Below, piece after piece: positions 3,700 to 62,353 of a DNA stretch of 64,000 nucleotides; the first letter of the stretch is position 1; every line of letters starts with the position of its first letter. A model generated the notes under the pieces. That model had not been told where the DNA came from. It did not search any database and saw only the letters and a list, made by a program, of their open reading frames with translations. Both the position numbers and the translations under genes were made by a program. Origin of the DNA: Candidatus Kerfeldbacteria bacterium RIFCSPLOWO2_02_FULL_42_19 (GTDB lineage Bacteria > Patescibacteriota > Patescibacteriia > HO2-48-17); assembly GCA_001818315.1 (NCBI GenBank), contig MHKF01000012.1, positions 128,080 through 192,079 of the forward strand, written 5' to 3'.

Positions 3700-3702
3700 T
3701 GT

Positions 3703-18040: not shown

Positions 18041-18116
18041 TCCGCGGTAGCTCAGTTGGTAGAGCAGTTGGCTGTTAACCAATTGGTCGTGGGTTCGAGT
18101 CCCACCCGCGGAGCCA
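18041..18116 (+). tRNA. tRNA-Asn (anticodon GUU)
   Basis: 7-bp acceptor stem tccgcgg/ccgcgga, D-arm TAGCTCAGTTGGTAGAGC, anticodon loop cuGUUaa, T-arm GGTTCGAGTCC, encoded CCA; 76 nt. Confidence 0.85.
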
Positions 18117-18122
18117 TCACTT

Positions 18123-19649
18123 ATGCGTACTACCAAGCGAGTACTCAATATTATTCATATTGCTTCTGAAGTCGATCCGCTTTCTAAGCGCGGCGGTCTT
18201 GCTGATGTCGTTGAATCTTTGCCAAAAGCTCTCAAAGCTCTTGGACATGACGTATGTCTTTTTACTCCGCTCTATGGTTCGATTGATCGACAGCAGTTCC
18301 ATCTTCAGAATATTAAAAATGACATTCCTTTAAAGATCGATGCAACGACTTCCGTAAGTTTTCATATTTGGAAAGGTGAACTTCCTTCTGGTATCACTGT
18401 TTTCTTTATCGATAACCATGAATATTTCGGGCGATACAAAACTATCTATTTAAGCGAAGAAGGTTCTATCGCCGATAATGCCCGTTTTTTATTCTTTGAT
18501 CTTGCGGTGCTTAAGGTTATTATTGAACTTAATCTCAAACCAGATATTTTGCATTGTCATGATTACCAGTCTGGTCTTGTGCCTTATTTTCTCAAATATC
18601 GCTTTCGAAAAAGTAAGTTTTTCAAAAATACTGCAACGGTTTTCACAATACATAATCTCGTCTTTCAACTCGGTCGCAATTGGTGGGAAGTCCCCCCTGA
18701 ACTTAAAGACGACGGTCGATTGAAATTACCTTTGATGACCGCTGTCGATCAAATTTCCGCTATTAATTTTATGAAACGAGCGATCCTCACTGCTGATATG
18801 GTGAATACCGTTTCTGAGCAGTATGCTCTTGAAGTCCTGACGCCTGAAGTCGGTCAGAATCTTTATCGGTTGCTGAATAGCAAATACGATACGGGCCGGT
18901 TTATTGGTATCGTTAACGGCATTGATTACAATGAATACAATCCCGAAACAGACCCCGGCTTGTTTCGGAAGTTTTCCATCGATACATTGCAACTGAAACA
19001 AGAAAATAAAATCGGTCTGCAGAAAATGTTTCGACTGCCGTTGAATCCGTTGATTCCGGTGATCGGGAGTACGAGTCGTATTGCCGAACAAAAAGGTTTT
19101 GATCTCGTGATGCGTGTTGTCGAAACGTTCGCGCATTTGCCGTTGCAACTTATATTGTTTGGTGACGGTGGCCGTGAATATATTTCTTTTTTTAAAAATA
19201 TCGCACGTAGATATCCAAAGAAGATCGCAATCCAGCCTTTTGAAAGTCAGGATGAAACAAAAATTCTTGCGGGTTCCGATATGTTTTTGCTCCCTTCTCG
19301 ATTTGAACCGTGTGGACTTGGACAATTAAAAAGTTTACGATACGGTAGTATTCCCATTGTGCGTGCGACGGGTGGACTCATCGATACCGTAACAAATTAC
19401 GATCCCCGAACGCAGAAAGGAAATGGCTTCGTGTTCCGTAGTTATAATTCCAAACATCTACTGGTCGCTGTTGTTCGTGCTATGGAAAATTTCAAATATG
19501 CAAAGGAATGGAACGCGCTTGTTAAGCGCGGTATGCAACTTTCTTTTTCTTGGGCGCTGCCGGCAAAAAAATATGTCAAACTCTATCGTCATGCACTTCA
19601 TGTGAAAAACGGTAGTGATGCCGTCGATGTGTATAGCGAAAATACATGA
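18123..19649 (+). CDS. glgA: glycogen/starch synthase (GT5, GlgA-like), copy 1
   Basis: N-terminal IASEVDPLSKRGGLADVV (K-x-GGL motif); GT-B C-terminal region with E…PCGL. Confidence 0.8.
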   Translation: MRTTKRVLNIIHIASEVDPLSKRGGLADVVESLPKALKALGHDVCLFTPLYGSIDRQQFHLQNIKNDIPLKIDATTSVSFHIWKGELPSGITVFFIDNHEYFGRYKTIYLSEEGSIADNARFLFFDLAVLKVIIELNLKPDILHCHDYQSGLVPYFLKYRFRKSKFFKNTATVFTIHNLVFQLGRNWWEVPPELKDDGRLKLPLMTAVDQISAINFMKRAILTADMVNTVSEQYALEVLTPEVGQNLYRLLNSKYDTGRFIGIVNGIDYNEYNPETDPGLFRKFSIDTLQLKQENKIGLQKMFRLPLNPLIPVIGSTSRIAEQKGFDLVMRVVETFAHLPLQLILFGDGGREYISFFKNIARRYPKKIAIQPFESQDETKILAGSDMFLLPSRFEPCGLGQLKSLRYGSIPIVRATGGLIDTVTNYDPRTQKGNGFVFRSYNSKHLLVAVVRAMENFKYAKEWNALVKRGMQLSFSWALPAKKYVKLYRHALHVKNGSDAVDVYSENT

Positions 19650-20926
19650 AAAAAAATGTAACACAATTTTCTGGAGTCAGGCGTGAATCGCGCTCTATTC
19701 CTTGGGCAGCCCTTTTTCATATCTATCAACCAGATCACTGGGATCCGCGAGTGATTCGAAAGGTTGCAAAAGAAGCGTATTATCCCTTTCTACGCATGTT
19801 GCAAAAAAATCCGAATCATAAAATCACTTTGAATATTTGTGCTTCCCTTACCGAACAGTTGAGTCGTCACGGTATGTCGGACCTTTTGCGTGGCTTTGCT
19901 CTCTGCGCACAGCGCGGTCAAATTGAGTTTACTCAAACAGCAAAGTATCATCCTATTTTACCGAAATTACCGCGTAAGGAAATTATCCGGCAGTTTGAAT
20001 TGAACTATGCAACGAATCGAGCGTTTTTTGGAGAGGCTTTCGCGCCTCGAGGTGTGTTTTTACCGGAGATGTGCATGAATCACAATGTCGCTTCGATTAT
20101 TGCTGAGCTTGGATATGAGTGGATTGTGTTGGATGAAATTGCGTATGCCGGACGCATCGGCGATGTTTCGTTTCGTTATAAATATTACGATCCGAAGAGC
20201 ACATTATTGCTTTTATTCCGTAATAGAATCTTAAGCGATGTATTTTTCCGGTTGGATTTGAATACTGTCAGCGAATTTCGTAATTTTATACTCGAAAAAT
20301 TAGCGCCGCAGTCACCGCTCGTTACTGCGCTTGATGGAGAAAATCTTGGGCATCATCGCAAAGGTATGGACGGGATATATCATAAGCTTGTGCAAAGTCG
20401 ACCGTTTGTAACTATGACCTATTCTGAACTTCTCGCAACACTGCCACTCAGGAAACTCTCACATCCTTTACATCCTTCAAGTTGGGCTTCGCGTTCCGAA
20501 GAACTCGCCCGCGGAGTGCCTTATATTCGTTGGGATGATCCTACCAATCCGATTCACACGTTACTCTGGGAGATTACCCGAGGGGTCTTGAAGATTTTTT
20601 ATAAACACCAGGCGAAAACCGTTTTATGCGGTGAAGCACGGATTCGACTCGATCAGGCACTGAACAGCGATCAGTATTGGTGGGCATCCACACAACCTTG
20701 GTGGAGTGTGGAAATTCTTTTTGCAGCCCTCGATGAGTGGAAACAGGTACTTTCGCAACTCGCTGGCGTGCCTCAACAAGAGATTCAAAAGATTATGCGA
20801 CTTATCACTCGCACGAAACGTCTCGTACGTACATGGCAAGACAAGGGCGTTGCGGAGCGTCGCCGACTCGCCTATCTACGCACCGTGCAGGAGGCAAGTT
20901 TTCTTGGAGGTAAAACAGTTTTATGA
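19646..20926 (+). CDS. glycoside hydrolase family 57 protein (alpha-glucan-active), copy 1
   Basis: GH57 blocks HIYQP…, IEFTQTAKYHPILP, GVFLPEMC (nucleophile Glu region), WIVLDE; overlaps the next gene by 4 nt. Confidence 0.6.
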   Translation: MKKNVTQFSGVRRESRSIPWAALFHIYQPDHWDPRVIRKVAKEAYYPFLRMLQKNPNHKITLNICASLTEQLSRHGMSDLLRGFALCAQRGQIEFTQTAKYHPILPKLPRKEIIRQFELNYATNRAFFGEAFAPRGVFLPEMCMNHNVASIIAELGYEWIVLDEIAYAGRIGDVSFRYKYYDPKSTLLLLFRNRILSDVFFRLDLNTVSEFRNFILEKLAPQSPLVTALDGENLGHHRKGMDGIYHKLVQSRPFVTMTYSELLATLPLRKLSHPLHPSSWASRSEELARGVPYIRWDDPTNPIHTLLWEITRGVLKIFYKHQAKTVLCGEARIRLDQALNSDQYWWASTQPWWSVEILFAALDEWKQVLSQLAGVPQQEIQKIMRLITRTKRLVRTWQDKGVAERRRLAYLRTVQEASFLGGKTVL

Positions 20927-22317
20927 TTTGGACTAATTTTTTACATATTTATCAGCCGCCGACGCAGAAGCAACGATGGGTGCGTAAAATCGCTAACGAA
21001 AGTTACCGCAAACTCATTCGTGGATTTTTGGATAATCCCAAAGCCAAAGTTACGATGAATGTGAATGCTGTACTTCTGGAACTTTTCGATCGATATGGAT
21101 GTCAGGATGTGATTGCCGGATTGCGTGAACTTGGCGAGCGCGGACAGATTGAATTTACGGCATCAGCAAAATATCATCCTTTTTTGCCGCTTATGCCTGA
21201 GACTGAAATTGTTCGTCAGATCGGACTGAATACGGAAACAAATCGCAAGTATTTAGGTCCGGCGTATCAACCCAAAGGTTTTTTCCCGCCTGAAATGGCA
21301 TATAATCGGCGTGTCGGTGAGATTGTGAGTAAGCTCGGTTTTCGTTGGATTATTCTTGATGAACTCGCTTCTGCGCCTGCAACAGGGACACTGTCTGCGA
21401 GCGCACTGTATGAAATTAAAGGCATCCCCGATTTTTATGTTTTTTTTCGTGATCGCGCCATGAGCTTTCGAATTCTTTCTGCACAGGTTGGCGTGAGTGT
21501 GTTTTCAAGTAACATGTTGTTGGATTTTTTAGGTGATCGTTTGAATCGTAACGAATATTTACTTACGGCAATGGACGGCGAAACATTTGGACATCATCGA
21601 CCGGGTCTTGAGATGTTATTGTTTGAGATTTACAAAGCAGAGGGCATTACTTCTCTCACGATTTCTCAGCTTTTTGAACATTTTCACGAAAAACGTGTTA
21701 TTGATCCGCGTGATTCCACGTGGGCATTGATGCGTCGGGATTTGGAACGTAATACACCTTTTTCGCGTTGGAAGAATGAACAGAACGAAATTCAAATGTG
21801 GCAATGGGAGCTTACCGATTTGGCGATTCGGAATGTGGAGCACTTTGAACGCGCTAAGCAGGTTACTGCGGCACAGCGTGCAGCGCTCGATCGCGCGCTG
21901 CACAGCGATCAATATTGGTGGGCTTCCGCTGAGCCGTGGTGGAGTATTGAAATGATCGAGGCAGGTGCAAAAGAGTTACGGGATGTTGTTTTGAGTCTGA
22001 GTGTTTCAGCTGCTACAAAGCGTAAAGCAGAAGAACTCTACAAAAATATTTTGTATCGAGCTTTTGATTGGCAGCGGTCAGGCAAAGTCGAAACGATGGC
22101 GAAAATGGCGGATGAAGATGTGACGCAGCGCATTACGACCGAGATTCCTTATATTCCGGAAGAAGAATTTAATACGATCGTTGCGAATTTGACGAAGCAA
22201 ATGAAGCAGGCTGCAGATGCTTTAGAATACGAACGCGCAGCGCAGATTCGCGAGCGCATTAGCGAGTTGAATGCAAAGAAAGACGAAATTACACAACCGA
22301 AAGAGTATCGACCGTGA
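20923..22317 (+). CDS. GH57-family protein with a C-terminal UVR (UvrB/UvrC-type) domain
   Basis: GH57 blocks as in the upstream paralog, plus a C-terminal ANLTKQMKQAADALEYERAAQIRERISEL UVR motif. Confidence 0.6.
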   Translation: MIWTNFLHIYQPPTQKQRWVRKIANESYRKLIRGFLDNPKAKVTMNVNAVLLELFDRYGCQDVIAGLRELGERGQIEFTASAKYHPFLPLMPETEIVRQIGLNTETNRKYLGPAYQPKGFFPPEMAYNRRVGEIVSKLGFRWIILDELASAPATGTLSASALYEIKGIPDFYVFFRDRAMSFRILSAQVGVSVFSSNMLLDFLGDRLNRNEYLLTAMDGETFGHHRPGLEMLLFEIYKAEGITSLTISQLFEHFHEKRVIDPRDSTWALMRRDLERNTPFSRWKNEQNEIQMWQWELTDLAIRNVEHFERAKQVTAAQRAALDRALHSDQYWWASAEPWWSIEMIEAGAKELRDVVLSLSVSAATKRKAEELYKNILYRAFDWQRSGKVETMAKMADEDVTQRITTEIPYIPEEEFNTIVANLTKQMKQAADALEYERAAQIRERISELNAKKDEITQPKEYRP

Positions 22318-22318
22318 A

Positions 22319-22411
22319 GCGAGGAGTTGAGTGTAGGGATAGTATAGCTTTCGAAGCACTAACATTGTACTGTGTGCTGAGAAAGTATATTATCCCTACA
22401 CTCAACTCCTC
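22319..22411. repeat. Family-B hairpin repeat, copy 2 (after the GH57-UVR stop)
   Basis: gaggagttgagtgtagggatagtatagctttcgaagcactaacattgtactgtgtgctgagaaagtat…atccctacactcaactcctc. Confidence 0.6.
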
Positions 22412-22488
22412 GTGCAATCGATTTGGATTATTGCAACGATGCGCCTTCTCGGTCATAATAATATCAAGATGTTCATTTGTGATTTTTA

Positions 22489-23955
22489 ATGTACATGAAA
22501 GCATTGCGTGTTTTATTTATTGCTTCTGAATTGAATCCACTCGCAAAAGTTGGAGGTCTTGCGGATGTTATTGGAGCTTTGCCGAAAGCTCTCAAAAAGC
22601 AAGGTGTGGATGTGCGAATCATGATCCCAAAGTATAGCATGATTGATCCCAAGCAATATCCGATGCAGCGTATTGCGCGACGCATTCCGGTGCGCCTCTA
22701 TAATCGCACTTACTTGGTTAATGTTTTTACAACGAAACTTCCGGGCACTTCCATCACGGTATATCTCATCGATCAAAAGGATTTCTTTGCAGACGGCGGA
22801 GTGTATTATTCAAAGACAGCTCTTGTAGGTACTTTTAAAGAAATCGAGAGATTTTTGTTTTTCGGTCGTGCGGCCCTTGAAAGCCTTCCGCATCTCGGCT
22901 GGAAGCCAGATATTTTGCATTGTAATGATTGGCACACCGCGTTTATTCCTGTATGGCTTAAGACCATCTATTGTTGTCATCATCCATTTTACGCTTCACT
23001 TCGCACGTTATATACCATTCATAATCTTGCGAATCAAGGCATTGGTGATCTGAAGCTTTTAAAAGTTGCGAATGTTTCTACGCGAGCTCTCCCGAGTCTT
23101 GAACGTGATGCTCGGAATAATGATATTGATCTCATGGTACAAGGTATTCTCACAAGCGACGCGATCAATACGGTGAGTCCAACGTATGTGAAGGAGATTC
23201 TGACACCGGAATACGGTGAGCGTTTAGACCCAGTCCTCAAACTCCGCCAGCGTGATCTTTATGGGATTTTGAACGGTATTGATACGGATGTTTTTAATCC
23301 TTCCACTGATGTGCATATTCGACAGCGTTATTCGGTGAAGAGTTTTGAACAGAAGCAGATCAATAAGGCGGCCTTGCAACAAATGTGTGGTTTTCATGTC
23401 GATCCGCGTGTACCCGTTTTTGGTATGGTATCGCGTTTGACTCATCAAAAAGGATTCGATCTTTTAATCAAACTGCGTAAGGAACTTATAAAACTTCCTA
23501 TGCAACTTGTCATTTTGGGCACTGGCGATGCAACGATTGAAAAAGCCCTTGTGGCGCTCAGCAAACGATCGTCGCGCACGATGTGTATTTTTTTGAAATT
23601 TGATGCCAAGCTCGCGCAGATGATTTATGCTGGCAGTGATTTTTTTCTTATGCCTTCTCGGTTTGAACCGTGTGGCCTTGGACAAATGATTGCTATGCGC
23701 TATGGTACTCCGCCTGTTGTACGATCGACTGGAGGACTTGCTGATACCGTGCGGCACCTCAAAACAGGTGTCGTCTTCCATGATTATGCCGCCAAAGCAC
23801 TTCTTGCTGCTTTACACACGGCGATCCGTATCTATCACAATCCTCACGTGTATACTGCGTTAGCGAAAGCCGGCATGAGACAAGATCTTTCGTGGGGCAG
23901 TTCTGCTCAAGTGTATATGCGATTATATCGTAAACTCCTTGCATCCCATTCATAA
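22489..23955 (+). CDS. glgA: glycogen/starch synthase (GlgA-like), copy 2
   Basis: IASELNPLAKVGGLADVIGALP; GT-B C-terminal SRFEPCGL. Confidence 0.8.
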   Translation: MYMKALRVLFIASELNPLAKVGGLADVIGALPKALKKQGVDVRIMIPKYSMIDPKQYPMQRIARRIPVRLYNRTYLVNVFTTKLPGTSITVYLIDQKDFFADGGVYYSKTALVGTFKEIERFLFFGRAALESLPHLGWKPDILHCNDWHTAFIPVWLKTIYCCHHPFYASLRTLYTIHNLANQGIGDLKLLKVANVSTRALPSLERDARNNDIDLMVQGILTSDAINTVSPTYVKEILTPEYGERLDPVLKLRQRDLYGILNGIDTDVFNPSTDVHIRQRYSVKSFEQKQINKAALQQMCGFHVDPRVPVFGMVSRLTHQKGFDLLIKLRKELIKLPMQLVILGTGDATIEKALVALSKRSSRTMCIFLKFDAKLAQMIYAGSDFFLMPSRFEPCGLGQMIAMRYGTPPVVRSTGGLADTVRHLKTGVVFHDYAAKALLAALHTAIRIYHNPHVYTALAKAGMRQDLSWGSSAQVYMRLYRKLLASHS

Positions 23956-23964
23956 CATTATTCT

Positions 23965-24894
23965 ATGCGTCCAGAAATTCGTAAAGATTATATTCAAGAT
24001 AAATATGTGATCATCGCTCCTAAGCGTGCACAGCGTCCTCATGATATTGAAAAACCGGTCACGCAATTTAAGACTGAAATTCCTGCCATGTGCGCTTTCT
24101 GCCCACAAAATATTAATAAAGTGAAGCCGGTGTATAAGAAGGGTCGGGATCATGGTTGGTTGATTTATGTCGTGAAGAATATTTTTCCTGCCGTGTCGCT
24201 TGACAATCCGGAATCTTACGGAACGCAAGAAGTGATTATCGAAACACCGGATCACACAAAACACATGGATGATTTGCCTGAGCGACATATCGCGTCGCTT
24301 CTCCATACGTATGCCGAACGAACGCGCGCTTTGGAAAAAATTTTGAACATTGATTATATTTTAATTTTTAAAAATAACGGCGGTGCAGCCGGTGCATCCT
24401 TGAAACATTCCCATTCCCAGATTTTTGCGACACGCTTTGTTCCGCCGCAGTTGATGGATAAGTCCCGCAAGGTTTTTGAGTATAAGCTTTTCAACGGCAG
24501 GTGCGTTTATTGCGATACGATCGATAAAGAATCAAAAGGTCCGCGGTTTGTATATAAAGATCAACATGTCATTGCTTTTACTCCGTATGCATCGATGCAT
24601 AATTACGAAATTTGGATTATGCCGCTTCGGCATGTGGATAACATTACGAAACTCACGCACGTGGAACATCATTCTTTTGCTCGTATCTTAAAGCGCATTC
24701 TTAAGAAAATTACCTACCTCAATTTGCCGTACAATTATTATTTTCATCAACTCGTGAACGATACGGATCAGCATTTGTATTTGAAAATTGTACCGCGCGG
24801 TTCGGTCTGGGCGGGCGTGGAAATTGGGTCTGGCCTGGTGATTAATGCGATTGCGCCGGAGGAAGCTGCTAAGTATTATCGCGGTGAATTGTAA
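23965..24894 (+). CDS. GalT-type HIT-family nucleotidyltransferase (galactose-1-phosphate uridylyltransferase / ADP-glucose phosphorylase-like)
   Basis: CAFCPQN zinc/active-site motif and HSHSQIF (H-x-H-x-Q), with an internal duplicated half-domain. Confidence 0.6.
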   Translation: MRPEIRKDYIQDKYVIIAPKRAQRPHDIEKPVTQFKTEIPAMCAFCPQNINKVKPVYKKGRDHGWLIYVVKNIFPAVSLDNPESYGTQEVIIETPDHTKHMDDLPERHIASLLHTYAERTRALEKILNIDYILIFKNNGGAAGASLKHSHSQIFATRFVPPQLMDKSRKVFEYKLFNGRCVYCDTIDKESKGPRFVYKDQHVIAFTPYASMHNYEIWIMPLRHVDNITKLTHVEHHSFARILKRILKKITYLNLPYNYYFHQLVNDTDQHLYLKIVPRGSVWAGVEIGSGLVINAIAPEEAAKYYRGEL

Positions 24895-36987: not shown

Positions 36988-38517
36988 ATGACCCACACTA
37001 TGCCTGCAAAAGATTTTCCAAAAGAATGGCCGATCTATTTTAAAGACAATATTATCGTTGGAAATCTTCAGAATTCTGTTGGAATTGCCTGTCTTTGGAC
37101 GCCGAAAGTCATGTTCGCACGAAAGTTAAACGCCGCAAGTTACTGCGTTTTGAGTCAGTTGTATTCGAACGACGGCATTAATCCAATTTTGCGCAATGTT
37201 TTAGCTCGGCCGCAAATTCATACGATTGTTATTTGCGGGCAGGATAAAATTGGTTCAGCCGATGCGCTGACAAAGCTTTGCGTTAGCGGTATTGATGAGA
37301 AATACAAGATAATCGGTAAACTCGAGGCAAAGGTGGATAAGGAGATTCCGCGCGAGGCCGTGGAACTTTTTCGTAGGAACGTAAAGATTGTGGATATGCG
37401 TGGCGTGCTCGATGCGGCGAAAATTCAACAAGCCGTGCGCGAACACGCAGCGCCGAACACACCGTGGGCAGCGCCGCAACTTTTTCCTGAACCAGAACTT
37501 TCAACCGAACGTTTTCCGATCGATCCTCACGGAGTCAAGATTCGTGAGAAGTATGTCGCGCAAGCGTGGCTTCGGGTGCTGTATTATATTATGCGCTTCG
37601 GCGCGGAAAAACCTACGCATCACGGCACGAATCAAAAAGAACTCCTGAATATGATGACGATTATCACTGACGAAGATCCCGAAAATATCCATTGGGCAGA
37701 TTGGTTCAATTTTACACGCGAGCACTTTGAAGGGTATAAGCTACAAGTCATGAGTGCGGAATCGATTCCTAGTCTGGAGTATACGTACGGCATGCGATTG
37801 CGGAATCACGATGGCGTGAATCAGATTGAGACGCTTATTGCAAAAATTCGAGAGGAATATTTTTCCCGACGCGCTGTTGCTTTTACGTGGAATGTCGCTC
37901 AGGATAACGTGAGTCAGCATCCGCCGTGCCTTGATCTCGTACAGGTGATTGTGCAGGACGATACGCTTCACATGACGTGTTACTTTCGTTCGAATGACAT
38001 GTTCCGCGCATGGCCGGAAAATGCGTTGGCCTTGCGCACGATGCACAAGGAGATTGCCGACGGAGTGGAATTGCCGATGGGCGAAATGTGTATTATTTCT
38101 CACAGCGCTCATGTGTACGAAGAAAACTATAATGAAGTGAAGGAGCTTTTGAAAAATTATTATGCGAAAGAGGTTGTTTTTTGCCGTTTTGATCCGCGTG
38201 GCAATTTTACGATTCACGTGAATCGCGAAAAGCGTCAGTTAGAAATGATCATGATGACGCCGAAAGGTGAGAAGATTGTCAAATACGAAGCACCCGATGC
38301 GTTCCGTATGATGCAAAAATTGGTCGCTGATGAAGCAGTTAGCGAGATTGGGCACGCGTTAGATTTGGGTGAGGAGCTCATGGAAGCAGAAATTTGTTTG
38401 CGTACAGGCCTTGAATATCGGCAGGATATCACAGGACGTACGCAATTTTTAAAGGAACTTGATCAGCTTTTGGCAGCACGCAGGCAAGAGGAACGAATCT
38501 TCGCGCGTTCAAGATGA
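36988..38517 (+). CDS. thymidylate synthase (ThyA-fold) homolog with a ~170-aa N-terminal extension
   Basis: RRAVAFTWNVAQD…HPPCLDLVQVIVQD…CYFRSNDMFRAWPENALALRTMHKEIA…ISHSAHVYEENYNE parallels the ThyA blocks R..WNP.D…PPCH…QF.V…YQRS.D…PFNIASYALL…GD.HIY.NH, including the catalytic Cys. Confidence 0.55.
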   Translation: MTHTMPAKDFPKEWPIYFKDNIIVGNLQNSVGIACLWTPKVMFARKLNAASYCVLSQLYSNDGINPILRNVLARPQIHTIVICGQDKIGSADALTKLCVSGIDEKYKIIGKLEAKVDKEIPREAVELFRRNVKIVDMRGVLDAAKIQQAVREHAAPNTPWAAPQLFPEPELSTERFPIDPHGVKIREKYVAQAWLRVLYYIMRFGAEKPTHHGTNQKELLNMMTIITDEDPENIHWADWFNFTREHFEGYKLQVMSAESIPSLEYTYGMRLRNHDGVNQIETLIAKIREEYFSRRAVAFTWNVAQDNVSQHPPCLDLVQVIVQDDTLHMTCYFRSNDMFRAWPENALALRTMHKEIADGVELPMGEMCIISHSAHVYEENYNEVKELLKNYYAKEVVFCRFDPRGNFTIHVNREKRQLEMIMMTPKGEKIVKYEAPDAFRMMQKLVADEAVSEIGHALDLGEELMEAEICLRTGLEYRQDITGRTQFLKELDQLLAARRQEERIFARSR

Positions 38518-39481: not shown

Positions 39482-39916
39482 ATGGGGCAAAATTTACGAC
39501 CAACTGCTTTACAATTGGAAGAGTTGGAGAAGTTGGGTCTTCCAGTTTCAGGGAATCCGTGGATTACGTTCGACGCCTGCCGTGAACTCCTTTTGTTCAT
39601 TATTCATGGAAATTATACTGTGGGCAAGATCAGAGATGAACGAGCGACTATCGCGGTATCTTATTGGAAGCAGTGGGTTGGTAAGAGAGTCGAATCGCAA
39701 GCGAGCTTCGCTCCTGGCCATGGAGAGGTTCTCTATCTGAAGCCTCATAAGGTTGAGGATGTAGGGGCGTTACGCAGAGATTCACACGGACGCTTCGATC
39801 ATCTCTTTCCGTTTCAGGCGAGTGTTCGTTTCGATGATGGACGAAAGAAAATACTTGCATTGTCGCATCTTCGCCTACTCAAGAAAACAGAAAGCGATGT
39901 TTCGGAGGTCTCATGA
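39482..39916 (+). CDS. hypothetical protein
   Basis: 144-aa ORF preceded by an aggaggtg SD-like sequence 6 nt upstream; I preferred it over the overlapping 39296 start. Confidence 0.35.
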   Translation: MGQNLRPTALQLEELEKLGLPVSGNPWITFDACRELLLFIIHGNYTVGKIRDERATIAVSYWKQWVGKRVESQASFAPGHGEVLYLKPHKVEDVGALRRDSHGRFDHLFPFQASVRFDDGRKKILALSHLRLLKKTESDVSEVS

Positions 39917-39938
39917 GGTCGTTTTAGAAGTTTGCTCC

Positions 39939-40163
39939 TTAGAGTTTTTTGGAGAAAAGGGCACGTTGTTTCTGCACTGGTATTTTCAATGTGCCCTTTT
40001 GTGTTTTGTCACAAAAAATTTCTCCGTGTTCAAAATTAATCGTTATTTGATCGCCAGAAGCGAGGCATTGCGTCGCATTATTCGTTCCGACAATACAAGG
40101 AATATGGAATTCACGCGCGATGATCGCAGGATGACTCGTCACTCCACCTCGGTCCATGAGCAT
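39939..40163 (-). pseudogene. orphan PEP-utilising-enzyme mobile (phosphohistidine) domain fragment, probably a gene remnant
   Basis: MLMDRGGVTSHPAIIAREFHIPCIVGTNNATQCLASGDQITINFEHGEIF matches the PEP-utilising mobile-domain consensus GGRTSHAAI.ARE.GIP.VVG…G; only ~74 aa and it abuts trxB antisense. Confidence 0.4.
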
Positions 40164-40214
40164 GATCAGATAATATTTGCTTTTAGTCTGGTTTTTTCTT
40201 ATGATGAAACACAT

Positions 40215-41162
40215 ATGTCCGAGATTCACAAACTTATCATTATCGGCTCCGGTCCTGCTGGAATTACTGCGGCGTTGTATGCGGCACGAGCAGACCTCGC
40301 GCCGATTGTTTTGCTTGGCAAAGAACCTGGTGGACAACTTATGACGACAACTGATGTGGAAAATTATCCTGGTTTTCCCGAGGGCATACAAGGCCCGGAG
40401 CTTATGCAGAAGTTTATGGATCAAGCAAAGCGTTTTGGCGCGAAACTTGTCAGTGAATCCGTTGTACGCGTCGATTTTTCTAGTCCGCCGCACAAGGTTT
40501 ATGTGAGCGCGAGCGTTGGTGAAAAAGAATATAGAGGTGAAGCGGTGATCGTTGCGACCGGTGCTTCTGCTATGTGGCTTGGTTTGGAATCTGAAGCACG
40601 ATTACGCGGACGCGGCGTTTCGAGTTGCGCTACATGCGATGGAGCTTTTTTTCGCAATAAGTCCGTAGTTGTCGTCGGCGGTGGAGATACCGCTCTGGAA
40701 GAAGCGCTTTTTTTGACGAAGTTTTCAACGAAAGTCACAGTTGTGCACCGACGCGATGCATTGCGCGCAAGCAAAATTATGCAGGATCGTGCTTTCGGAA
40801 ATTCAAAGATAGCTTTCATTTGGAATGTTGAAGTCATCGAGGTATTAGGTTCACAGAAAGTAGAAAGTGTGAAATTGCGTGATACAAAAACAGGCGCAGA
40901 GTCGATTTTCCCCTGTGAAGGACTTTTTATTGCCATCGGTCATAAACCGAATACAGACGTTTTTAAGAACGTGCTCCAACTCGATAAAAAGGGTTACATT
41001 GTTCCCGAAGATGAAACCGCGAGCGGCATCGAAGGTATTTTTATTGCCGGTGACGTAGGTGATATTCGATATCGACAGGCAGTAACAGCCGCGGGTTCCG
41101 GATGTAAAGCTGCGATGGATGCCGAACGTTGGCTCGAAGAACGCACATCTCACAGCGTGTAG
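40215..41162 (+). CDS. trxB: thioredoxin-disulfide reductase
   Basis: IIGSGPAGITAALYAAR FAD motif, CATCDG redox centre, GGGDTALEEA NADPH motif, FIAGDV; start placed at Met 40215 rather than the long upstream ORF. Confidence 0.8.
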   Translation: MSEIHKLIIIGSGPAGITAALYAARADLAPIVLLGKEPGGQLMTTTDVENYPGFPEGIQGPELMQKFMDQAKRFGAKLVSESVVRVDFSSPPHKVYVSASVGEKEYRGEAVIVATGASAMWLGLESEARLRGRGVSSCATCDGAFFRNKSVVVVGGGDTALEEALFLTKFSTKVTVVHRRDALRASKIMQDRAFGNSKIAFIWNVEVIEVLGSQKVESVKLRDTKTGAESIFPCEGLFIAIGHKPNTDVFKNVLQLDKKGYIVPEDETASGIEGIFIAGDVGDIRYRQAVTAAGSGCKAAMDAERWLEERTSHSV

Positions 41163-42066: not shown

Positions 42067-43692
42067 TTATGGTGAAACCAGATAAAATGTTTCGTTGACA
42101 CCATGAAATTGATCAGTCAATGTGATATCCGGTCGATAGTGCGGTTCGCTGACATAACTTGTTTCAAATGGGCTCCCCGTTAAAATGACTTTTGGATTCT
42201 GCTGCAGGAAGCTGTGAATGTCAATCACTGTATTCCACTTGGAGAATTGTTTAGTGAAGATTTCATATACAAAATAATTTGGATACAGTTGGGTTAACTC
42301 CCAATTATATGATTGTGACACACTATTATTGCCAAAATTTAAAGCAAATTCAAGTGATGATGATCGAAAATAATGAAAAACGGTATAATCAGCATAGCGT
42401 TCTTGTAATTCTTGTTGAAGAGAGAGTACTTCTTGCTTGGTATTCTTTTCTACCGTATTTAATTTTTTCACTTCTGAAAAGGTAAGTGCCATCGATTGAC
42501 CAGCGAACACAAAAAAAAGAATAGTCAGACATATTGTTGCAACCGTTTTTGGTTCATGAAAATGACGCAATTGGAGAAGAGCACAACAAATCATCATAGC
42601 TGTAAGTGGTACGAACGGCAAATAATAATATTGGATCATATGCTTGGCAATAAAACCAAAGGCGAGAATTTGGGTGATCGCTGCAGCTGCACCCACACGA
42701 AATGTCATTGTTTGGAGATACTGTCGCCGTTGTGGCAAAACAATGATGCTCACGATACTGACGAGTAAAAAAAGAATGATGACTTCGAAAATATGGGGAA
42801 AACCATCAAGTAATATTTTGAGATTACTCCAATAGACCGACCAATCTAGAATTTGTGCAGTTCCGGCACCATGAATACCACTGTGTTGAAAAATCTTTAT
42901 TACCCAATCGAATAACTCTGCATAGCGCTGTCGAATAGGTAAGGTAAAAAAAAAGAAAAAACTAACGGCGCTTATCAAATAGAGTAATTTTAAACGGATT
43001 GTACGGATGATAATGAGAGGAAGGACAATCGTTGGCAAAAAATTCATTTTGGTGGCAATACCTAAACCAATAATCATTGCAGCTATGAGCGCATACACTA
43101 TGCCATGGCGCCAAGTTTGTTGCTTTGATTTGAGCATCATCACTAGCCACAGCATGAGCAATAATACTACTGTTAACAACATAGCTTCGGGTGCTACTTT
43201 CACTAAGCTATTCATTGGTATATAGCTAGAAAAAAATGGCGCGGTTTGTAGCAGCCATCCCAACCAAACGTTTTTTAATTTGTAATAAGCCGTAAAGCCG
43301 ATCGTACTTAATAGTAATGCATTGATGATGAGGAATACATAGCTCACTGTTTGTAAATATAATTCCGGATTTGTAAGCACGTCGGTTTCAAGTGTTGGCC
43401 AATCATAAACAAAATTGTTGCGTAGAAAGTGAACACACCGCATCACAATGGCAATAAAAATTTGTACCGGCGTACCAGGATGATCAATATGGCCAATGGG
43501 TAAATCTTCAATCACATTGAGTGCATTCATGAGATACGCATAATCTGGATCATAATTTGAACCTGACCAATATGGACCGCGCGAATTTTTAAGATACATC
43601 CCCAAGACAACAAAGAGTCCGGGAATGACGATAAAGCCTATCCAACGAGCTACAATTTTCCATTTGAAATGACGTGTGCCAATGATATTCAT
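42067..43692 (-). CDS. polytopic membrane protein, GT-C-like (ArnT/PMT-type) putative glycosyltransferase, paralog 1
   Basis: ~12 TM segments; conserved N-terminal loop YWSGSNYDPDYAYLMNALNVIEDLPIGHIDHPGTPVQ; tandem with its paralog. Confidence 0.45.
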   Translation of the reverse strand: MNIIGTRHFKWKIVARWIGFIVIPGLFVVLGMYLKNSRGPYWSGSNYDPDYAYLMNALNVIEDLPIGHIDHPGTPVQIFIAIVMRCVHFLRNNFVYDWPTLETDVLTNPELYLQTVSYVFLIINALLLSTIGFTAYYKLKNVWLGWLLQTAPFFSSYIPMNSLVKVAPEAMLLTVVLLLMLWLVMMLKSKQQTWRHGIVYALIAAMIIGLGIATKMNFLPTIVLPLIIIRTIRLKLLYLISAVSFFFFFTLPIRQRYAELFDWVIKIFQHSGIHGAGTAQILDWSVYWSNLKILLDGFPHIFEVIILFLLVSIVSIIVLPQRRQYLQTMTFRVGAAAAITQILAFGFIAKHMIQYYYLPFVPLTAMMICCALLQLRHFHEPKTVATICLTILFFVFAGQSMALTFSEVKKLNTVEKNTKQEVLSLQQELQERYADYTVFHYFRSSSLEFALNFGNNSVSQSYNWELTQLYPNYFVYEIFTKQFSKWNTVIDIHSFLQQNPKVILTGSPFETSYVSEPHYRPDITLTDQFHGVNETFYLVSP

Positions 43693-43700
43693 AGTCTGTG

Positions 43701-45077
43701 TTATCGAGGATAAAGTTCTTGTAACTCAACTGTATATGAGCCGTACGCAAAGTTATTACCGGCCTGCAAAGCCGAGTACTGGCCGGCACTTGTTTCATGA
43801 GTCGCAAGAAATTCCTTTTGCGTTTGTCGTTCAATGTCAATAGCTTGCGAGGTTTGACGAGAGCCTGAGATAATCGACTGTACAAATATAAAAATAAACA
43901 AAACTGCCAGGTAAACTCCGCTGGCATTTCGATGTTGAGATTTATTGCGCAATTGCATGAGAATACAACAAACTATAATGCCAGTCAGTGGAATAAATGG
44001 TATAAAATAATGATAACGCATATGTTTTGCAATCATCACCAGACTCAATAATTGACTAACGATGGCAGCTGCACCCACACGAAATGTCATTGTTTGGAGA
44101 TACTGCCGCCGTTGTGGCAAAACAATGATGCTCACGATACTGACGAGTAAAAAAAGAATGATGACTTCGAAAATACGGGGAAAACCATCGATTAATCCTT
44201 GCAAGTTGTTCCAATAGAGAGGCCAATCAATCACACCAACTGTACCGCTCCCGTGAATACCTGTATGTTGAAAAATACTTCCAAACCAATGAAATAATTT
44301 ATTGTATTGTGATCGAATCGGCCATGTCCACAAGAAAAAAAATCCAATCGTACTAGCGAAATACAATAATTTTAAGCGGATGGTTTGAATAATGAATAAC
44401 GGCACAATAAGCATTGGCAAAAAATTGACTTTGGTTGCAATACCCAAACCAACGATACTAGCAGCCACCAAACTAGAGTCGATCGCTTGGCGCCGATTGA
44501 ATTTGGTTTTCCCGAGCATTACGACTAACCAACAAATCAATAGCAAGACAATGGTCAATAATAATCCTTCCGGCGCCACTTTCGTGAAACTGTACATTGG
44601 TATGAATGAGCTCAGGAATGGCGTCGACTGCAAAATAATGGCAAAATAATAGTTTTTCAGTATCCCATATGTTATTATTCCAACGGTCAATAATAATACT
44701 GAATTGATGATCAGTAATGTATAACTGATGGCCTGTAAATACAATTCTGGATGTATTAGAACATCTGTTTCGAGCGTTTGTAAATCATATTGGGCACCAT
44801 TGCGTATAAGATGAGACGTTTTAATCACGAGTGCACTGAATAATTGTACCGGCGTACCAGGATGATCAATATGGCCAATGGGTAAATCTTCAATCACATT
44901 GAGTGCATTCATGAGATACGCATAATCTGGATCATAATTTGAACCTGACCAATATGGACCGCGCACATTTTTTATAAATATCCCTGTCATCAATAATGCG
45001 ACCGGAAGGATCAGCAAGCCGCACCCCAGTAACCAGGATTTCCAACTCAAGTGTCGCAACCAATTTACCAGCTGCAT
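43701..45077 (-). CDS. GT-C-like polytopic membrane protein, paralog 2
   Basis: Same N-terminal loop block; the internal 35-aa stretch EVIILFLLVSIVSIIVLPQRRQYLQTMTFRVGAAA is identical to paralog 1. Confidence 0.45.
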   Translation of the reverse strand: MQLVNWLRHLSWKSWLLGCGLLILPVALLMTGIFIKNVRGPYWSGSNYDPDYAYLMNALNVIEDLPIGHIDHPGTPVQLFSALVIKTSHLIRNGAQYDLQTLETDVLIHPELYLQAISYTLLIINSVLLLTVGIITYGILKNYYFAIILQSTPFLSSFIPMYSFTKVAPEGLLLTIVLLLICWLVVMLGKTKFNRRQAIDSSLVAASIVGLGIATKVNFLPMLIVPLFIIQTIRLKLLYFASTIGFFFLWTWPIRSQYNKLFHWFGSIFQHTGIHGSGTVGVIDWPLYWNNLQGLIDGFPRIFEVIILFLLVSIVSIIVLPQRRQYLQTMTFRVGAAAIVSQLLSLVMIAKHMRYHYFIPFIPLTGIIVCCILMQLRNKSQHRNASGVYLAVLFIFIFVQSIISGSRQTSQAIDIERQTQKEFLATHETSAGQYSALQAGNNFAYGSYTVELQELYPR

Positions 45078-45253: not shown

Positions 45254-46084
45254 TTAAAGATGATATGAAACTCCAATCCCAGCACCGGCATACCAATGAT
45301 GGAGGGGCTGCTCTTGAAAGAATAAAAAAGCTCGTTTCGTACGCTGACTAAATTCCCACAACTTTGATGAACAGTGAACATTGTCTCCGAGAATGATTGC
45401 TCGTGGTGATAATTTCGCTTGCACAGTCTCGTACTCGCGCAGTTCATATTCCTGAGAATGATCGCTGTCATTAATAAAAAGATCGATTGTCTGAGATAAT
45501 GTGTTCAGTGACGCGATTGAATCGCCATAGAGTATTTTGGCATATTCAGAGTATGGTAGCTGCAATAAATATCCAGCCACCGGGTCGATATCAGTCGTAT
45601 ATAAGTAGCCAGGTGCACCATCATGAGCATTACGTTTTAAAGCAGCCGCAATAATGCATGAACCAAGCCCCTTATTGGTTCCAGTTTCAACGACGATCTT
45701 CGGTTTCATCGCTCGAACAAATGCATACCAGCCAATGCGACGACTGTATTTTGCTGTTGAATCAGCAATATAGCGTTCGGGAGCCTGCTGTGTGAAACGA
45801 ACGATATGATCGTGTAATGCCTGATCATGGACAATTTCATCAATATATCGTTGTACGTCGCCTACAGGTTGATGGGTGACAGTAGCAACAAAGGCAATCA
45901 AATATTGCCTATTCAGGGCAGTGAGATCATATGTAAAATTATCAATCTCACGCGAAGTGAATGTCCAATGGAGTAATTGTTTGAATGTTGGTATGACATA
46001 ATGAGCACCAAACCAAAAACGGTATGGTATAAGCAGGATGCGACCTGCCGCCGTTGTTTTTAAAAAATGTTTCAACTTCTCCAT
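45254..46084 (-). CDS. class I SAM-dependent methyltransferase (TylF/CmcI-like O-methyltransferase family)
   Basis: IVVETGTNKGLGS SAM-binding motif and LFINDSDHS…E, at a length of ~276 aa. Confidence 0.5.
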   Translation of the reverse strand: MEKLKHFLKTTAAGRILLIPYRFWFGAHYVIPTFKQLLHWTFTSREIDNFTYDLTALNRQYLIAFVATVTHQPVGDVQRYIDEIVHDQALHDHIVRFTQQAPERYIADSTAKYSRRIGWYAFVRAMKPKIVVETGTNKGLGSCIIAAALKRNAHDGAPGYLYTTDIDPVAGYLLQLPYSEYAKILYGDSIASLNTLSQTIDLFINDSDHSQEYELREYETVQAKLSPRAIILGDNVHCSSKLWEFSQRTKRAFLFFQEQPLHHWYAGAGIGVSYHL

Positions 46085-46360
46085 AGCTCCATTGTGGATC
46101 TAAAAATAATGGCGTTGTGGTATTTCAATAATCAGCAAAGTGTGCCGTAATCCTTACTTCTCAACTGCTGCTGTGCTCACCTCATCGGTTCGGTAACGGA
46201 CGTTAAATAGACGGCGCCACCCCCTGCGACTAATGTTGTAGTTTAACATCGCTCAACTGGGTCGTCAATTTTTCGCAAGTTTATTTTTTTTCACAACCAA
46301 CGGATGATTTCCTGGGAAACAGAAAATTTTTTAAGAAAAGCTTTGCGTTCCGTTTTCATC

Positions 46361-47318
46361 TTAACGTACCCAAGCGTTGTATTCTTTGAGTCGCCCCTGC
46401 TTCTCATAAAGAAGGCGTGGATTCAGGATTTCTCGGGGAATTTGTTTGAGAAGCATGGCGTTCTCGGGTGCGTTCACGTTAGCGATCTCGTACCCGAAGT
46501 CAGGATCGCGTTGCCATCGAATTTTTCCTTCAATCATAACTTCTAACATGGCCGAGGAGTGAGGAATTTTTATTTTGAGCGCACGCCCTGCTGAGACGTC
46601 TTGTGCATCACCACCGATAAACCCTGTGTTCATCATCCACATCTCAACTCCTTTCATGCTCCTGGCAATCTCACTGAAACGTTCGGCCTGAAGACGATGA
46701 ATTCTGGGGAAGAAGGGCTGTGTAAATGGGGATCGAATTCTGCCGTGTTCTTTCCCTGCAACCGAGGTTTTAGTGGTCTCTCCGAGCATAAAATACGCTG
46801 TAGCCTGTGCGGGCGAAGTGAAGCGGAGGATGCCTGGCGTTGCAGCGTCGCTCCCTGCATCACGATTCAAAATCCCCATAAGCTTGACTTGCGGGATATT
46901 TCGAAAATTTGCAGCATTTTTTATTGCGCTCATTGGGATGATCGAACGACTGTTCTGAGTCCAGATCACAAAATCCCATCCATCTTTTGAGATGCCGCGT
47001 TCATCAACGATTTCTTTAAATGAAACTTTTGACAAAATATAGTTGTCCACATTTTCAGCCACGGCGCCGTTGCGATTCGATCAGCTTCTGCGCCTTTTCT
47101 GGAGGAATTGTATTCGAGGAGTAGCAGTCCTTCTCCGCATCAGGAGCAATAATGTAGGTGTATTGATCTATCCTCGCTTTGTTCCGCGAGATCTTGTTCA
47201 AACTCCCGTAAGCAGTTCGGATCGTTACCGATGTGTATTCCAATGCGAGTTCCTGGAGTTCTTTCTGATTTGGATTTTCAATATATCTTACTTTGTAAGG
47301 TTTCAAATTGTGTGACAT
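46361..47318 (-). pseudogene. pckA: ATP-dependent PEP carboxykinase (pckA) remnant: N-terminal 87 aa and C-terminal 233 aa in different frames; the central kinase region is missing
   Basis: N-terminal ORF 47055-47318 (…YGSLNKISRNKARIDQYTYIIAP…) and C-terminal ORF 46361-47062 (…EMWMMNTGFIGG…LLYEKQG…) match the two PckA ends; no GLSGTGKTT P-loop region; 8-nt overlap with a frame change. Confidence 0.55.
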
Positions 47319-60412: not shown

Positions 60413-62353
60413 GTGTCGGCCTTCGATAATTCAAGAAATGAGTGTATGCAAGAAATAATATTCGTTACGATCATTCTTTTTGTCTGGGGTATTTTAAGTC
60501 TCGGTATCGGGCACTCCATCTTACGTAAATTATCTTGGCAAGCGAATGACGCTGTTTCTATCAGCATCGCTTATTTATTGGGTTTTGCTGTGTTGGCATA
60601 TAGTTTGGTGCTGTTAGGTTTAATCAAACTCTTTACGCTTCCGGCAGTCAGTATCGTAGGAGTTATCTATGTCGTACTTTTTGGACGAGGCGGTTTGCGC
60701 CAATTTTGGCAGTTCGTCATCAGCAGTGTGCATTTGAGTAAAAATATCTGGCGTACGCATCGTTGGTTGATAGTGCCGTTATTAGCTGTGGCAGTGTTTG
60801 TTCTCGTGAATTATCTTGCAAGTTTTGCTCCACCCACAGCACGCGATGAAATTTCTTATCATCTCCCAGAGGCGCGTGCACTCGTCTCAAGTCAGTCATT
60901 AGATTTTCTTACTAATGCTAAAAATTTTTATACGAATCTTCCACTCCTCTTAGAGGTCGTGTATGCCTGGGGTATTTTGGTGTCAGGCTATTCGTTGGCG
61001 CACGTCATGCACTACAGTATTTGGTTAGCTTTTTGCTTGTTTATATTTGGTTGGTTATACGAATATTTTGGTCGAACAACCGCGACGTGGTCGATAGTCG
61101 GTTTGTTTTTACTCACGCAAGTTGTGACTACGGCCACGAGCGGTTTAGTAGATACTGCCTATATGGTGCTCGAAATTATGAGCGTCTGTTTATTCATAAC
61201 TTGGTTTCATAGCAAACAAAATACAACTCTTGCCTTGGCTGGTATTATGATCGGCTTCGCTTTATCTATCAAATATTCTCCTCTCTTTACCGCTAGTTTA
61301 CTCGCTGTATTCATTGCAGGTGTCAGCTTTCCCCGACGTCAGTGGAGACCATTCATTTGGTTTGTATTACCTGTTGTCTTGGTTGGAGGATTTTGGTACA
61401 TCAAAAATTTCATTGTTTATTTCAATCCTACCTATCCGCTCCTCTTCGGACATGCCGACTATGGTGAAGCGGAATATCTTTCATTGATCGCAGCGATCCA
61501 AGATTTTGTTGTACCGCGAACGTTGTGGAATTATGTACAGATTCCGGTAACTTTTTATTTAGCTTGGACCAAGAGTGATTATCCACTCCTGTCGTTATCC
61601 TATCAACCCCAAAGCCTGATTGTATTGTTCAGTCTTGCCAGTTTGCCTTGGCTAATTGCACTCAAACGAGCCAGATTGGTCGTTCTGATACTGTTTTCTT
61701 ATATGATTGTCTATAGTTTGTATTGGTTCTTTATTGCGACTCATCAAGTACGTTTTTTGGATACAATTACTATTGTGCTGCTGTTGTTAGCAGTTATTGC
61801 TATTACCCGCTTGCCACGATATTGGAAATATGTGCCGGTCGCCATTTTATTCATTGCCATCATCGGTATTGGCTTACGTTACGATATTCGGAGTTATTTG
61901 CTCCATGTGATAGACGCCGCTATCGCTCAGCGCTGGATGCGTAAAAATGAAATTTATTACTTGATTGATCACATGAGTAAAAAGGATTATTTGGAATCGC
62001 ACTTTGGTTGCGGGGTATTAGCTCTTGACTACCTGGATACTACAAATCCAAACGTCAAGGTGTTAGATAATTGGACCGCATGGCATGATCACCAATTTAA
62101 GTTTTACGATCAGCACAGTCGTTTCATCAGTTTTCCGCCTGATTTGCCAGTTACAGATGTCAACAGCTTTATTCAAAGTAATGGTATTGGCTATATTTAT
62201 TTTGATACGAGAGCTAAAAATGATTTTGCGAATAGTACCGATCCATTTTTCAGGGAACACTATCGCGCCCGGTCAAACCAAGAACAACAATTGCTCGACG
62301 GCGCTACTTTGGTATTTGAATCAACTACCTGTCAACTCCATCGTTTACGATAA
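60413..62353 (+). CDS. polytopic GT-C-like membrane protein (ArnT/PMT-like glycosyltransferase candidate)
   Basis: ≥12 TM segments; ARDEISYHLPEA loop with a DE motif after the early TM segments; follows the GT2 and flippase genes. Confidence 0.5.
   Translation: MSAFDNSRNECMQEIIFVTIILFVWGILSLGIGHSILRKLSWQANDAVSISIAYLLGFAVLAYSLVLLGLIKLFTLPAVSIVGVIYVVLFGRGGLRQFWQFVISSVHLSKNIWRTHRWLIVPLLAVAVFVLVNYLASFAPPTARDEISYHLPEARALVSSQSLDFLTNAKNFYTNLPLLLEVVYAWGILVSGYSLAHVMHYSIWLAFCLFIFGWLYEYFGRTTATWSIVGLFLLTQVVTTATSGLVDTAYMVLEIMSVCLFITWFHSKQNTTLALAGIMIGFALSIKYSPLFTASLLAVFIAGVSFPRRQWRPFIWFVLPVVLVGGFWYIKNFIVYFNPTYPLLFGHADYGEAEYLSLIAAIQDFVVPRTLWNYVQIPVTFYLAWTKSDYPLLSLSYQPQSLIVLFSLASLPWLIALKRARLVVLILFSYMIVYSLYWFFIATHQVRFLDTITIVLLLLAVIAITRLPRYWKYVPVAILFIAIIGIGLRYDIRSYLLHVIDAAIAQRWMRKNEIYYLIDHMSKKDYLESHFGCGVLALDYLDTTNPNVKVLDNWTAWHDHQFKFYDQHSRFISFPPDLPVTDVNSFIQSNGIGYIYFDTRAKNDFANSTDPFFREHYRARSNQEQQLLDGATLVFESTTCQLHRLR

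Follow-up and report, generated by a model that had tools for sequence, protein, structure and literature searches.

A probable remnant of an ATP-type PEP carboxykinase-like gene with a deleted kinase core in a Candidatus Kerfeldbacteria genome

A locus on the minus strand of a Candidatus Kerfeldbacteria (CPR) genome from groundwater is very probably the non-functional remnant of a single ATP-type PEP carboxykinase (PEPCK)-like gene of about 590 codons, to judge from its comparison with intact relatives. According to this comparison, the gene has lost its core through a deletion of about 731 nt and carries, as a separate lesion, a +1 frameshift. The locus lies in the stretch of 64,000 nucleotides that we analysed as a whole, hereafter the window, to which all coordinates refer. 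Its homology to intact genes is collinear, runs in order along one strand and is interrupted by disabling lesions: the locus is an ordinary pseudogene.

Extent of the remnant and its two lesions

The features on which the analysis is based are the following:

46291..47318, minus strand: whole PEPCK(ATP)-like pseudogene, from ancestral start to ancestral stop, in three reading frames and three collinear blocks relative to intact relatives of 556–588 aa
47064..47318, minus strand: block 1, ancestral residues 1–85 (MSHNLK...LIESQRR), from BLASTP and tblastn
46367..47071, minus strand: block 2, the C-terminal part of the PEPCK nucleotide-binding domain (NGAVAENVDNY...EYNAWV), one base off the frame of block 1, from Pfam and tblastn
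46291..46365, minus strand: block 3, the conserved C-terminal tail (V)KMKTERKAFLKKFSVSQEIIRWL and its stop, in a third frame, from tblastn
47064..47069, minus strand: deletion junction, hexamer CGGCGC, with about 731 nt (243 codons plus 2 nt) missing, in a codon-level reading
46363..46366, minus strand: second lesion, a +1 frameshift, with 4 nt (cgtt) in place of one codon of the intact relatives

Two adjacent minus-strand ORFs occupy this region. One encodes 87 aa from an ATG (47055–47318) and overruns block 1 to a TGA at 47055, and the other encodes 233 aa from a GTG (46361–47062). Read in different frames, the two ORFs share 8 nt, where the stop codon of the first runs into the GTG of the second (GTGGCTGA). 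An earlier, sequence-only reading had described the pair with these coordinates, peptides, overlap and difference in frame, all of which we confirm, and had assigned the two ORFs to the two ends of ATP-dependent PEPCK. The assignment is borne out by both ORFs. The 233-aa ORF matches Pfam PEPCK_ATP (PF01293) with 64.5 bits against a gathering score of 26.5, covering profile positions 298–456 of 465 only. The 87-aa ORF has no match to any Pfam or NCBIfam model, and aligns from its Met1 to residue 84 with the intact 588-aa protein of the relative L009, with 56% identity (BLASTP, E 3e-29). Because the alignment begins at the ORF's own Met1, the ATG at 47318–47316 is read as the ancestral start codon.

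Among the NCBIfam PEPCK models, the best for the 233-aa ORF is NF006821, at 91.9 bits and below the cut-off of 369. The same ORF aligns to residues 307–489 of the T. thermophilus PckA (PDB 1j3b). Its GTG "start" was a Val codon in the interior of the ancestral gene and is simply the first GTG past the frame change. When intact relatives are compared with the window by tblastn, the two main blocks are collinear and abut at about 47066–47070. With the relative P0042, for example, residues 1–81 correspond to 47306–47064 (51% identity, E 6e-20) and residues 324–506 to 47068–46523, in a frame one base off (64% identity). Block 2 presents 59–64% identity to the intact relatives in this comparison and corresponds to about residues 328–562 of a 588-aa intact relative. 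In all, about 343 of about 588 codons are kept, across three frames with two frame changes. In the current annotation both products are "hypothetical" (A3B74_00670 for the 87-aa and A3B74_00675 for the 233-aa product), and the UniRef label of the latter is PEPCK (ATP).

The sequence-only reading had seen a structure of two pieces. This holds for blocks 1 and 2, but a third block (46365–46291) and the +1 frameshift at 46363–46366 had been missed. Between the V codon (gta, 46369–46367) and the K codon (aag, 46362–46360) there are 4 nt (cgtt): where the intact relative P0002 reads AWVEKMKNEREAFL, the window has AWV, then cgtt, and then KMKTERKAFL in another frame. The +1 frameshift makes a TAA at 46363–46361, about 24 codons before the end, and cuts off the C-terminal tail, which is conserved across the parent clade. 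Residues 531–551 of P0002 (KMKNEREAFLNKFSVDNEIVK) are recovered by tblastn at 46362–46300 in the third frame (67% identity, E 1e-3), and the severed tail still reads VKMKTERKAFLKKFSVSQEIIRWL followed by a stop, down to 46291, within a spurious ORF of 38 aa (46291–46407). Since the third block continues past the +1 frameshift, the remnant spans 46291–47318.

As for the missing part, a MAFFT alignment with 77 intact relatives places a single large gap of 239–244 residues (median 243) in the remnant. The lost segment comprises the motif DYFGESKKG, the HAGA(K) histidine, GLSGTGKTTTTFS with the GLSGTGKTT P-loop, and IQDD(M). From the E. coli and T. thermophilus PckA structures, we take DYFGESKKG, HAGA, GLSGTGKTT and IQDD to be the lysine pair, the metal-binding histidine, the kinase-1a P-loop and the acidic pair, respectively. 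Alignments with the intact relatives and with T. thermophilus PckA place all of the core ligands (the YxGExKK lysine pair, the HAxA histidine and the acidic pair after the P-loop) in the deleted segment. The pckA pseudogene with an internal deletion of the kinase core, as originally proposed, is therefore what tblastn recovers: two collinear, abutting blocks, with about 243 residues including GLSGTGKTTTTFS gone.

The deleted segment is not found elsewhere in the window. A tblastn search with seven intact relatives gave no significant match for residues ~82–323 in any frame of the 64 kb, and the kinase-1a P-loop (GLSGTGKT) is absent from all six frames. A P-loop-containing middle segment in a third frame, which the sequence-only reading had named as the observation that could overturn it, was thus looked for across the window and not found, and a P-loop core elsewhere in the window is excluded by the same search. 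Because the P-loop and the metal and substrate ligands are gone, kinase or carboxylase activity is, as judged from these alignments, impossible for the fragments, in agreement with the earlier proposal that the two ends could not form an active enzyme. The remnant also lacks the other properties of a functional PckA, namely a single full-length frame and a score above the curated cut-off, and reaches the Pfam gathering score alone.

These results can be set against the known enzyme. By homology, blocks 1, 2 and 3 correspond to the N-terminal end, the C-terminal nucleotide-binding region and the tail, respectively, of PckA (EC 4.1.1.49; PF01293; 1j3b from T. thermophilus, 1aq2 from E. coli), and the intact clade relatives, aligned with 1j3b, retain GLSGTGKTT, DYFGESKKG, HAGA and DD. 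Unlike PckA, the remnant is without the whole catalytic core and carries two frameshifts.

At the deletion junction, the frame of block 1 reads caa cgg cgc (Q R R, compare ESQRR/YIE of the relative L023, the slash marking the breakpoint) and that of block 2 reads aac ggc gcc (N G A, compare TGA of relatives), with CGGCGC at 47069–47064 common to both readings. L023, the nearest intact relative in the distance tree, has CGGCGC at both breakpoints, 731 nt apart; this spacing is 2 modulo 3 and gives exactly the codon-phase difference for a one-base frame offset. One intragenic deletion of about 731 nt took away the entire catalytic core and put the remainder one base out of frame, and it may have arisen by slippage or illegitimate recombination between two short direct repeats (CGGCGC). 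As the codon phase of the hexamer differs between the breakpoints, such an event would account for the sequence of the junction as well as for the offset in frame.

In reductive genome evolution, slippage or illegitimate recombination between short direct repeats is known to create bacterial pseudogenes by deletion. The remnant resembles such pseudogenes in its out-of-frame internal deletion, in a junction hexamer that is present at both breakpoints of the nearest intact relative, and in its extra small frameshift. This suggests a repeat-mediated deletion, and we keep the mechanism at the level of a suggestion because L023 is only 62% identical to the remnant, because the chance of a shared 6-mer between two 18-nt windows in these genes is about 6%, and because only 3 of the 77 relatives share a breakpoint 6-mer or longer. 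Involvement of a mobile element is rejected, with no IS-like repeats near the locus and neither direct nor convincing inverted repeats around the remnant.

Reality and age of the lesions

The lesions are genuine and not artefacts of one assembly. The 233-aa ORF is carried by 24 contigs. Eight loci of varied sample and assembler origin were compared, drawn from two NCBI MAGs, several MEGAHIT assemblies in ENA, a Logan assembly of SRR3990169 and an assembled groundwater metagenome, and each of them matches the window with 100% identity along 1221 nt covering the whole remnant. A sequencing error hiding a full-length ORF, which had also been named as able to overturn the pseudogene reading, is answered by the identity of these eight independent contigs. 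Clusters at 90% identity contain only 233-aa and 224-aa forms and one 100-aa form of the N-terminal ORF, an allele of the 87-aa ORF in which the stop is lost (TGA to TGG). No longer allele at 90% identity or above was found among about 15 billion proteins, and an intact or longer allele in the same population is rejected, since all cluster members are of 233 or 224 aa. Between the strain L089 and the window there is a single mismatch in 12,001 nt; it lies inside the remnant and changes the conserved DPDFGYE to DTDFGYE (P-to-T).

Of 101 alignment columns with at least 97% conservation, the remnant departs from the consensus at 9, against a median of 0 and a maximum of 8 in the 77 intact members, two of which have 7 and 8. 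By this measure the remnant appears to be an outlier, but a mild one, and the deviation could simply reflect a long CPR branch: in the neighbour-joining tree, its terminal branch measures 0.188 compared to a median of 0.053, and is not the longest. None of the three remnant frames contains an internal stop in 1032 nt, and 4.6% of the possible single-base changes would create one. Because no stop has been gained, neutral divergence since inactivation is bounded at less than about 0.06 substitutions per site (95%). We infer that the inactivation is recent in neutral-drift terms, relative to the divergence from any known relative. No diverged close relative of the remnant, from which dN/dS could be obtained, turned up in the collections searched.

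Parent clade and genomic surroundings

Among the 120 protein matches listed, the closest other proteins are annotated as PEPCK(ATP), are 545–560 aa long and 54–67% identical, and belong to MAGs of Myxococcota, Deltaproteobacteria, Eisenbacteria, WOR-3 and Zixibacteria. A genome scan yielded 260 relatives in species-representative genomes. The best relative among the best 80 of these 260 is L009, with 67% identity and an intact ORF of 588 aa (L009:5083-6849). In 78 of these best 80 loci the frame stays open for 589 codons or more, which sets the intact clade length at about 590 aa (588–600). The length of ~530 aa that the sequence-only reading had given for the intact enzyme does not apply here, as the clade relatives have about 588–600 aa.

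The parent clade is made up of MAGs of Myxococcota, Zixibacteria, WOR-3, Eisenbacteria, Hydrothermota, Acidobacteria and similar groups. Compared to NF006821-type proteins such as P0114, its members have an insertion of about 51 residues before WTQNGRS, and the intact ones reach 272–276 bits on NF006821 against its cut-off of 369. In length (about 590 aa), in the ~51-residue insertion and in the sub-cut-off NF006821 score, the clade is thus unlike classical PckA (about 530 aa). It appears to be a widespread PEPCK_ATP-like family that is uncharacterised and stands outside the curated PEPCK subfamilies. Since the clade is atypical and scores below the curated cut-off, PEPCK activity of the ancestral gene can only be presumed. 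The remnant is similar to this divergent clade (L009, L023, P0002, P0004), with 54–67% identity over the kept blocks, the same insertion and the same tail. On the other hand, the genes of the clade are intact (78 of 80 loci), whereas the copy in the window is broken and is the sole one under a CPR label among those seen.

Several proteins of 335–341 aa are also named "PEPCK" (P0032, P0048, P0061; also P0012 and P0035). All of them begin at the internal Met of IQDDM, past the P-loop, and are therefore partial calls and not a natural short form of the enzyme. The one that was checked, P0032, comes from the long-read contig L074 (L074:5000-6100), where small indels such as gagccgatccgaagacgacatggtc for EPIQDDMV have frameshifted the gene call; these indels are probably assembly errors rather than biology. 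A natural short PEPCK was rejected on these grounds.

In the window, the pck remnant is situated between two divergently transcribed arms of an O-antigen-like glycan cluster, with the Wzm gene on one side and a Methyltransf_24 gene on the other. This cluster forms a low-GC block at about 42000–62400 (0.36–0.40, compared to 0.41–0.50 for core genes) and contains a Wzm/Wzt ABC transporter, a DegT aminotransferase, a GFO/IDH oxidoreductase, an ATP-grasp protein, several methyltransferases and glycosyltransferases. Two adjacent genes on the minus strand (42067–43692 and 43701–45077) encode paralogous multi-pass membrane proteins of 541 and 458 aa with no Pfam match. They share segments of 130–140 nt with 95–97% identity (43462–43602/44844–44984 and 42683–42814/44065–44196), suggesting a recent duplication or gene conversion. 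Inside the Methyltransf_24 gene, at 45520–45578, the window has 57 nt where the assembly L002 (GCA_001818735.1) has 33 nt, and contig L004 ends at the same point, which suggests a scaffold gap or strain variation.

A Pyr_redox_2 oxidoreductase (39822–41162, plus strand) lies about 5 kb downstream of the remnant in convergent orientation. Its homologs, with 39–43% identity, are located 1–3 kb downstream of intact pck in the Zixibacteria loci L022, L052 and L077. This neighbourhood may be an old synteny trace or a coincidence. Synteny with intact loci was discarded as evidence, because the sole match is Pyr_redox_2 in three related Zixibacteria loci and is too weak.

A 509-aa protein (36988–38517, plus strand) has an unusual combination of an MtrA-like N-terminus, a thymidylate-synthase-like middle and a PterinBD-DUF4346 C-terminus, and its gene adjoins a dCTP deaminase. 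Large ORFs without a Pfam match at E ≤ 1e-5 are found at 7102–9945 (minus strand, 947 aa, GC 0.50) and at 60413–62353 (plus strand, 646 aa). Promoter and terminator signals occur at chance level, with none upstream of the remnant, and Rfam models detect in the window only a tRNA at 18041–18113. This tRNA opens a region (18041–24894) that continues as a glycogen-type cluster with two starch/glycogen synthases, two GH57 enzymes and a GalT/HIT-like protein; PGI and a ROK kinase are encoded at 2731–4548.

A Pfam analysis of about 40 ORFs revealed no other PEPCK, of ATP or GTP type, within the 64-kb window. Since the glycogen cluster, PGI and the ROK kinase are intact, the lineage would keep sugar storage and upper glycolysis while its PEPCK is dead. 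High coding density and a scarcity of pseudogenes have been reported for CPR genomes. Intact genes are densely packed in the rest of the window, and the remnant is therefore an isolated case and not a sign of genome-wide decay.

Alternative readings, origin and significance

Could the gene be intact, or its pieces still be of use to the cell? That the deletion and the frameshifts arose from misassembly or miscalled bases is very improbable. Such errors do occur in this family, as the frameshifted PEPCK gene calls (the 336-aa forms from small indels in the long-read contig L074) demonstrate, and the source is a metagenome-assembled genome; yet at the junction and at the 3' frameshift there is no difference at all among eight contigs of varied sample and assembler origin, a loss of ~731 nt is no base-calling error, there is no long repeat able to collapse an assembly graph, and the search of about 15 billion proteins returned no longer allele at 90% identity or above. 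An active enzyme, produced by reassembly of the pieces or by a programmed frameshift, is close to inconceivable: a –1 or +2 shift could bridge the overlap of the ORFs, but even a perfect fusion would be without about 243 residues, including the P-loop and every core metal and substrate ligand, and the missing segment is nowhere in the window. It is also improbable, though less so than either of these, that the 233-aa piece, perhaps along with the 87-aa one, continues to be expressed and selected as a stand-alone protein with a new role. Both frames are free of internal stops, the 233-aa ORF is above the Pfam gathering score, and the overlap of the 87-aa stop with the GTG could permit translational coupling. 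Against this, the 233-aa ORF owes its boundary to the deletion and begins at what was an internal Val codon, a frameshift cuts it off from the conserved tail, the remnant has more substitutions at clade-invariant positions than any other member, and the sole strain polymorphism strikes an invariant motif. Moreover, no promoter-like site is found upstream, and no similarly truncated protein is conserved in another lineage, the 336-aa forms being frameshifted gene calls. The narrower version, in which the 233-aa piece, possibly coupled to the 87-aa piece via GTGGCTGA, was kept as a nucleotide- or ligand-binding protein after catalysis was lost, seems a shade less credible still. If true, the retained 233-aa protein would be a rare co-opted enzyme relic in a minimal CPR genome.

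For the pseudogene itself, horizontal acquisition followed by decay is probably the most economical reading of its history. The gene would have entered the lineage by horizontal transfer from a non-CPR bacterium. Acquisition of this kind is likely because the best 80 of the 260 genomic relatives are all labelled as non-CPR or unclassified, at no more than 67% identity; these labels come from record titles, about a quarter of which read only "uncultured bacterium" or "bacterium". Among the 120 protein matches listed, none other than the source bears a CPR name. A rough neighbour-joining tree places the remnant inside the clade, beside L023 (an Acidobacteria MAG) and L009, and it is on this tree and on the record titles of the best 80 of 260 relatives that the transfer is proposed. 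In the literature PEPCK is described as patchy or missing in CPR (PMC9166423, PMC12114108). The remnant has a GC of 0.44–0.47, compared to 0.41–0.50 in the core genes of the window, and a GC3 of 0.48–0.52, and its composition may have adapted to the host after an old acquisition and before the recent inactivation. The same values, which match the core genes and not the low-GC glycan cluster around the remnant, would also suit a vertical relic from a CPR ancestor, the last trace of a gluconeogenic or anaplerotic step, in line with the continuing gene loss in gluconeogenesis that the sequence-only reading had put forward. We consider this origin possible but doubtful. An ancient loss of gluconeogenesis in CPR has been proposed in the literature, and the window encodes sugar and glycogen metabolism. 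However, a vertical origin has to contend with the lack of any CPR-labelled relative among the 120 protein matches listed and the best 80 of 260 loci, and with nearest relatives, among the matches listed, in Acidobacteria, Myxococcota and FCB-type MAGs at no more than 67% identity. The absence of stops, moreover, points to a recent inactivation and would demand long vertical retention in this lineage alone.

The significance of the locus is modest: it is useful for annotation and offers a small example of CPR gene decay. Our analysis corrects two "hypothetical protein" entries, A3B74_00670 and A3B74_00675. Under its UniRef name, PEPCK (ATP), the product of the latter could be miscounted as a working PEPCK in CPR metabolic reconstructions, where the presence or absence of PEPCK is used to judge whether these bacteria can run gluconeogenesis. 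The remnant is a clear-cut instance of an inactivated gene that can be dated, within a lineage that is said to have few pseudogenes, and it is probably a case of a horizontally acquired gene of central metabolism that failed to be retained.
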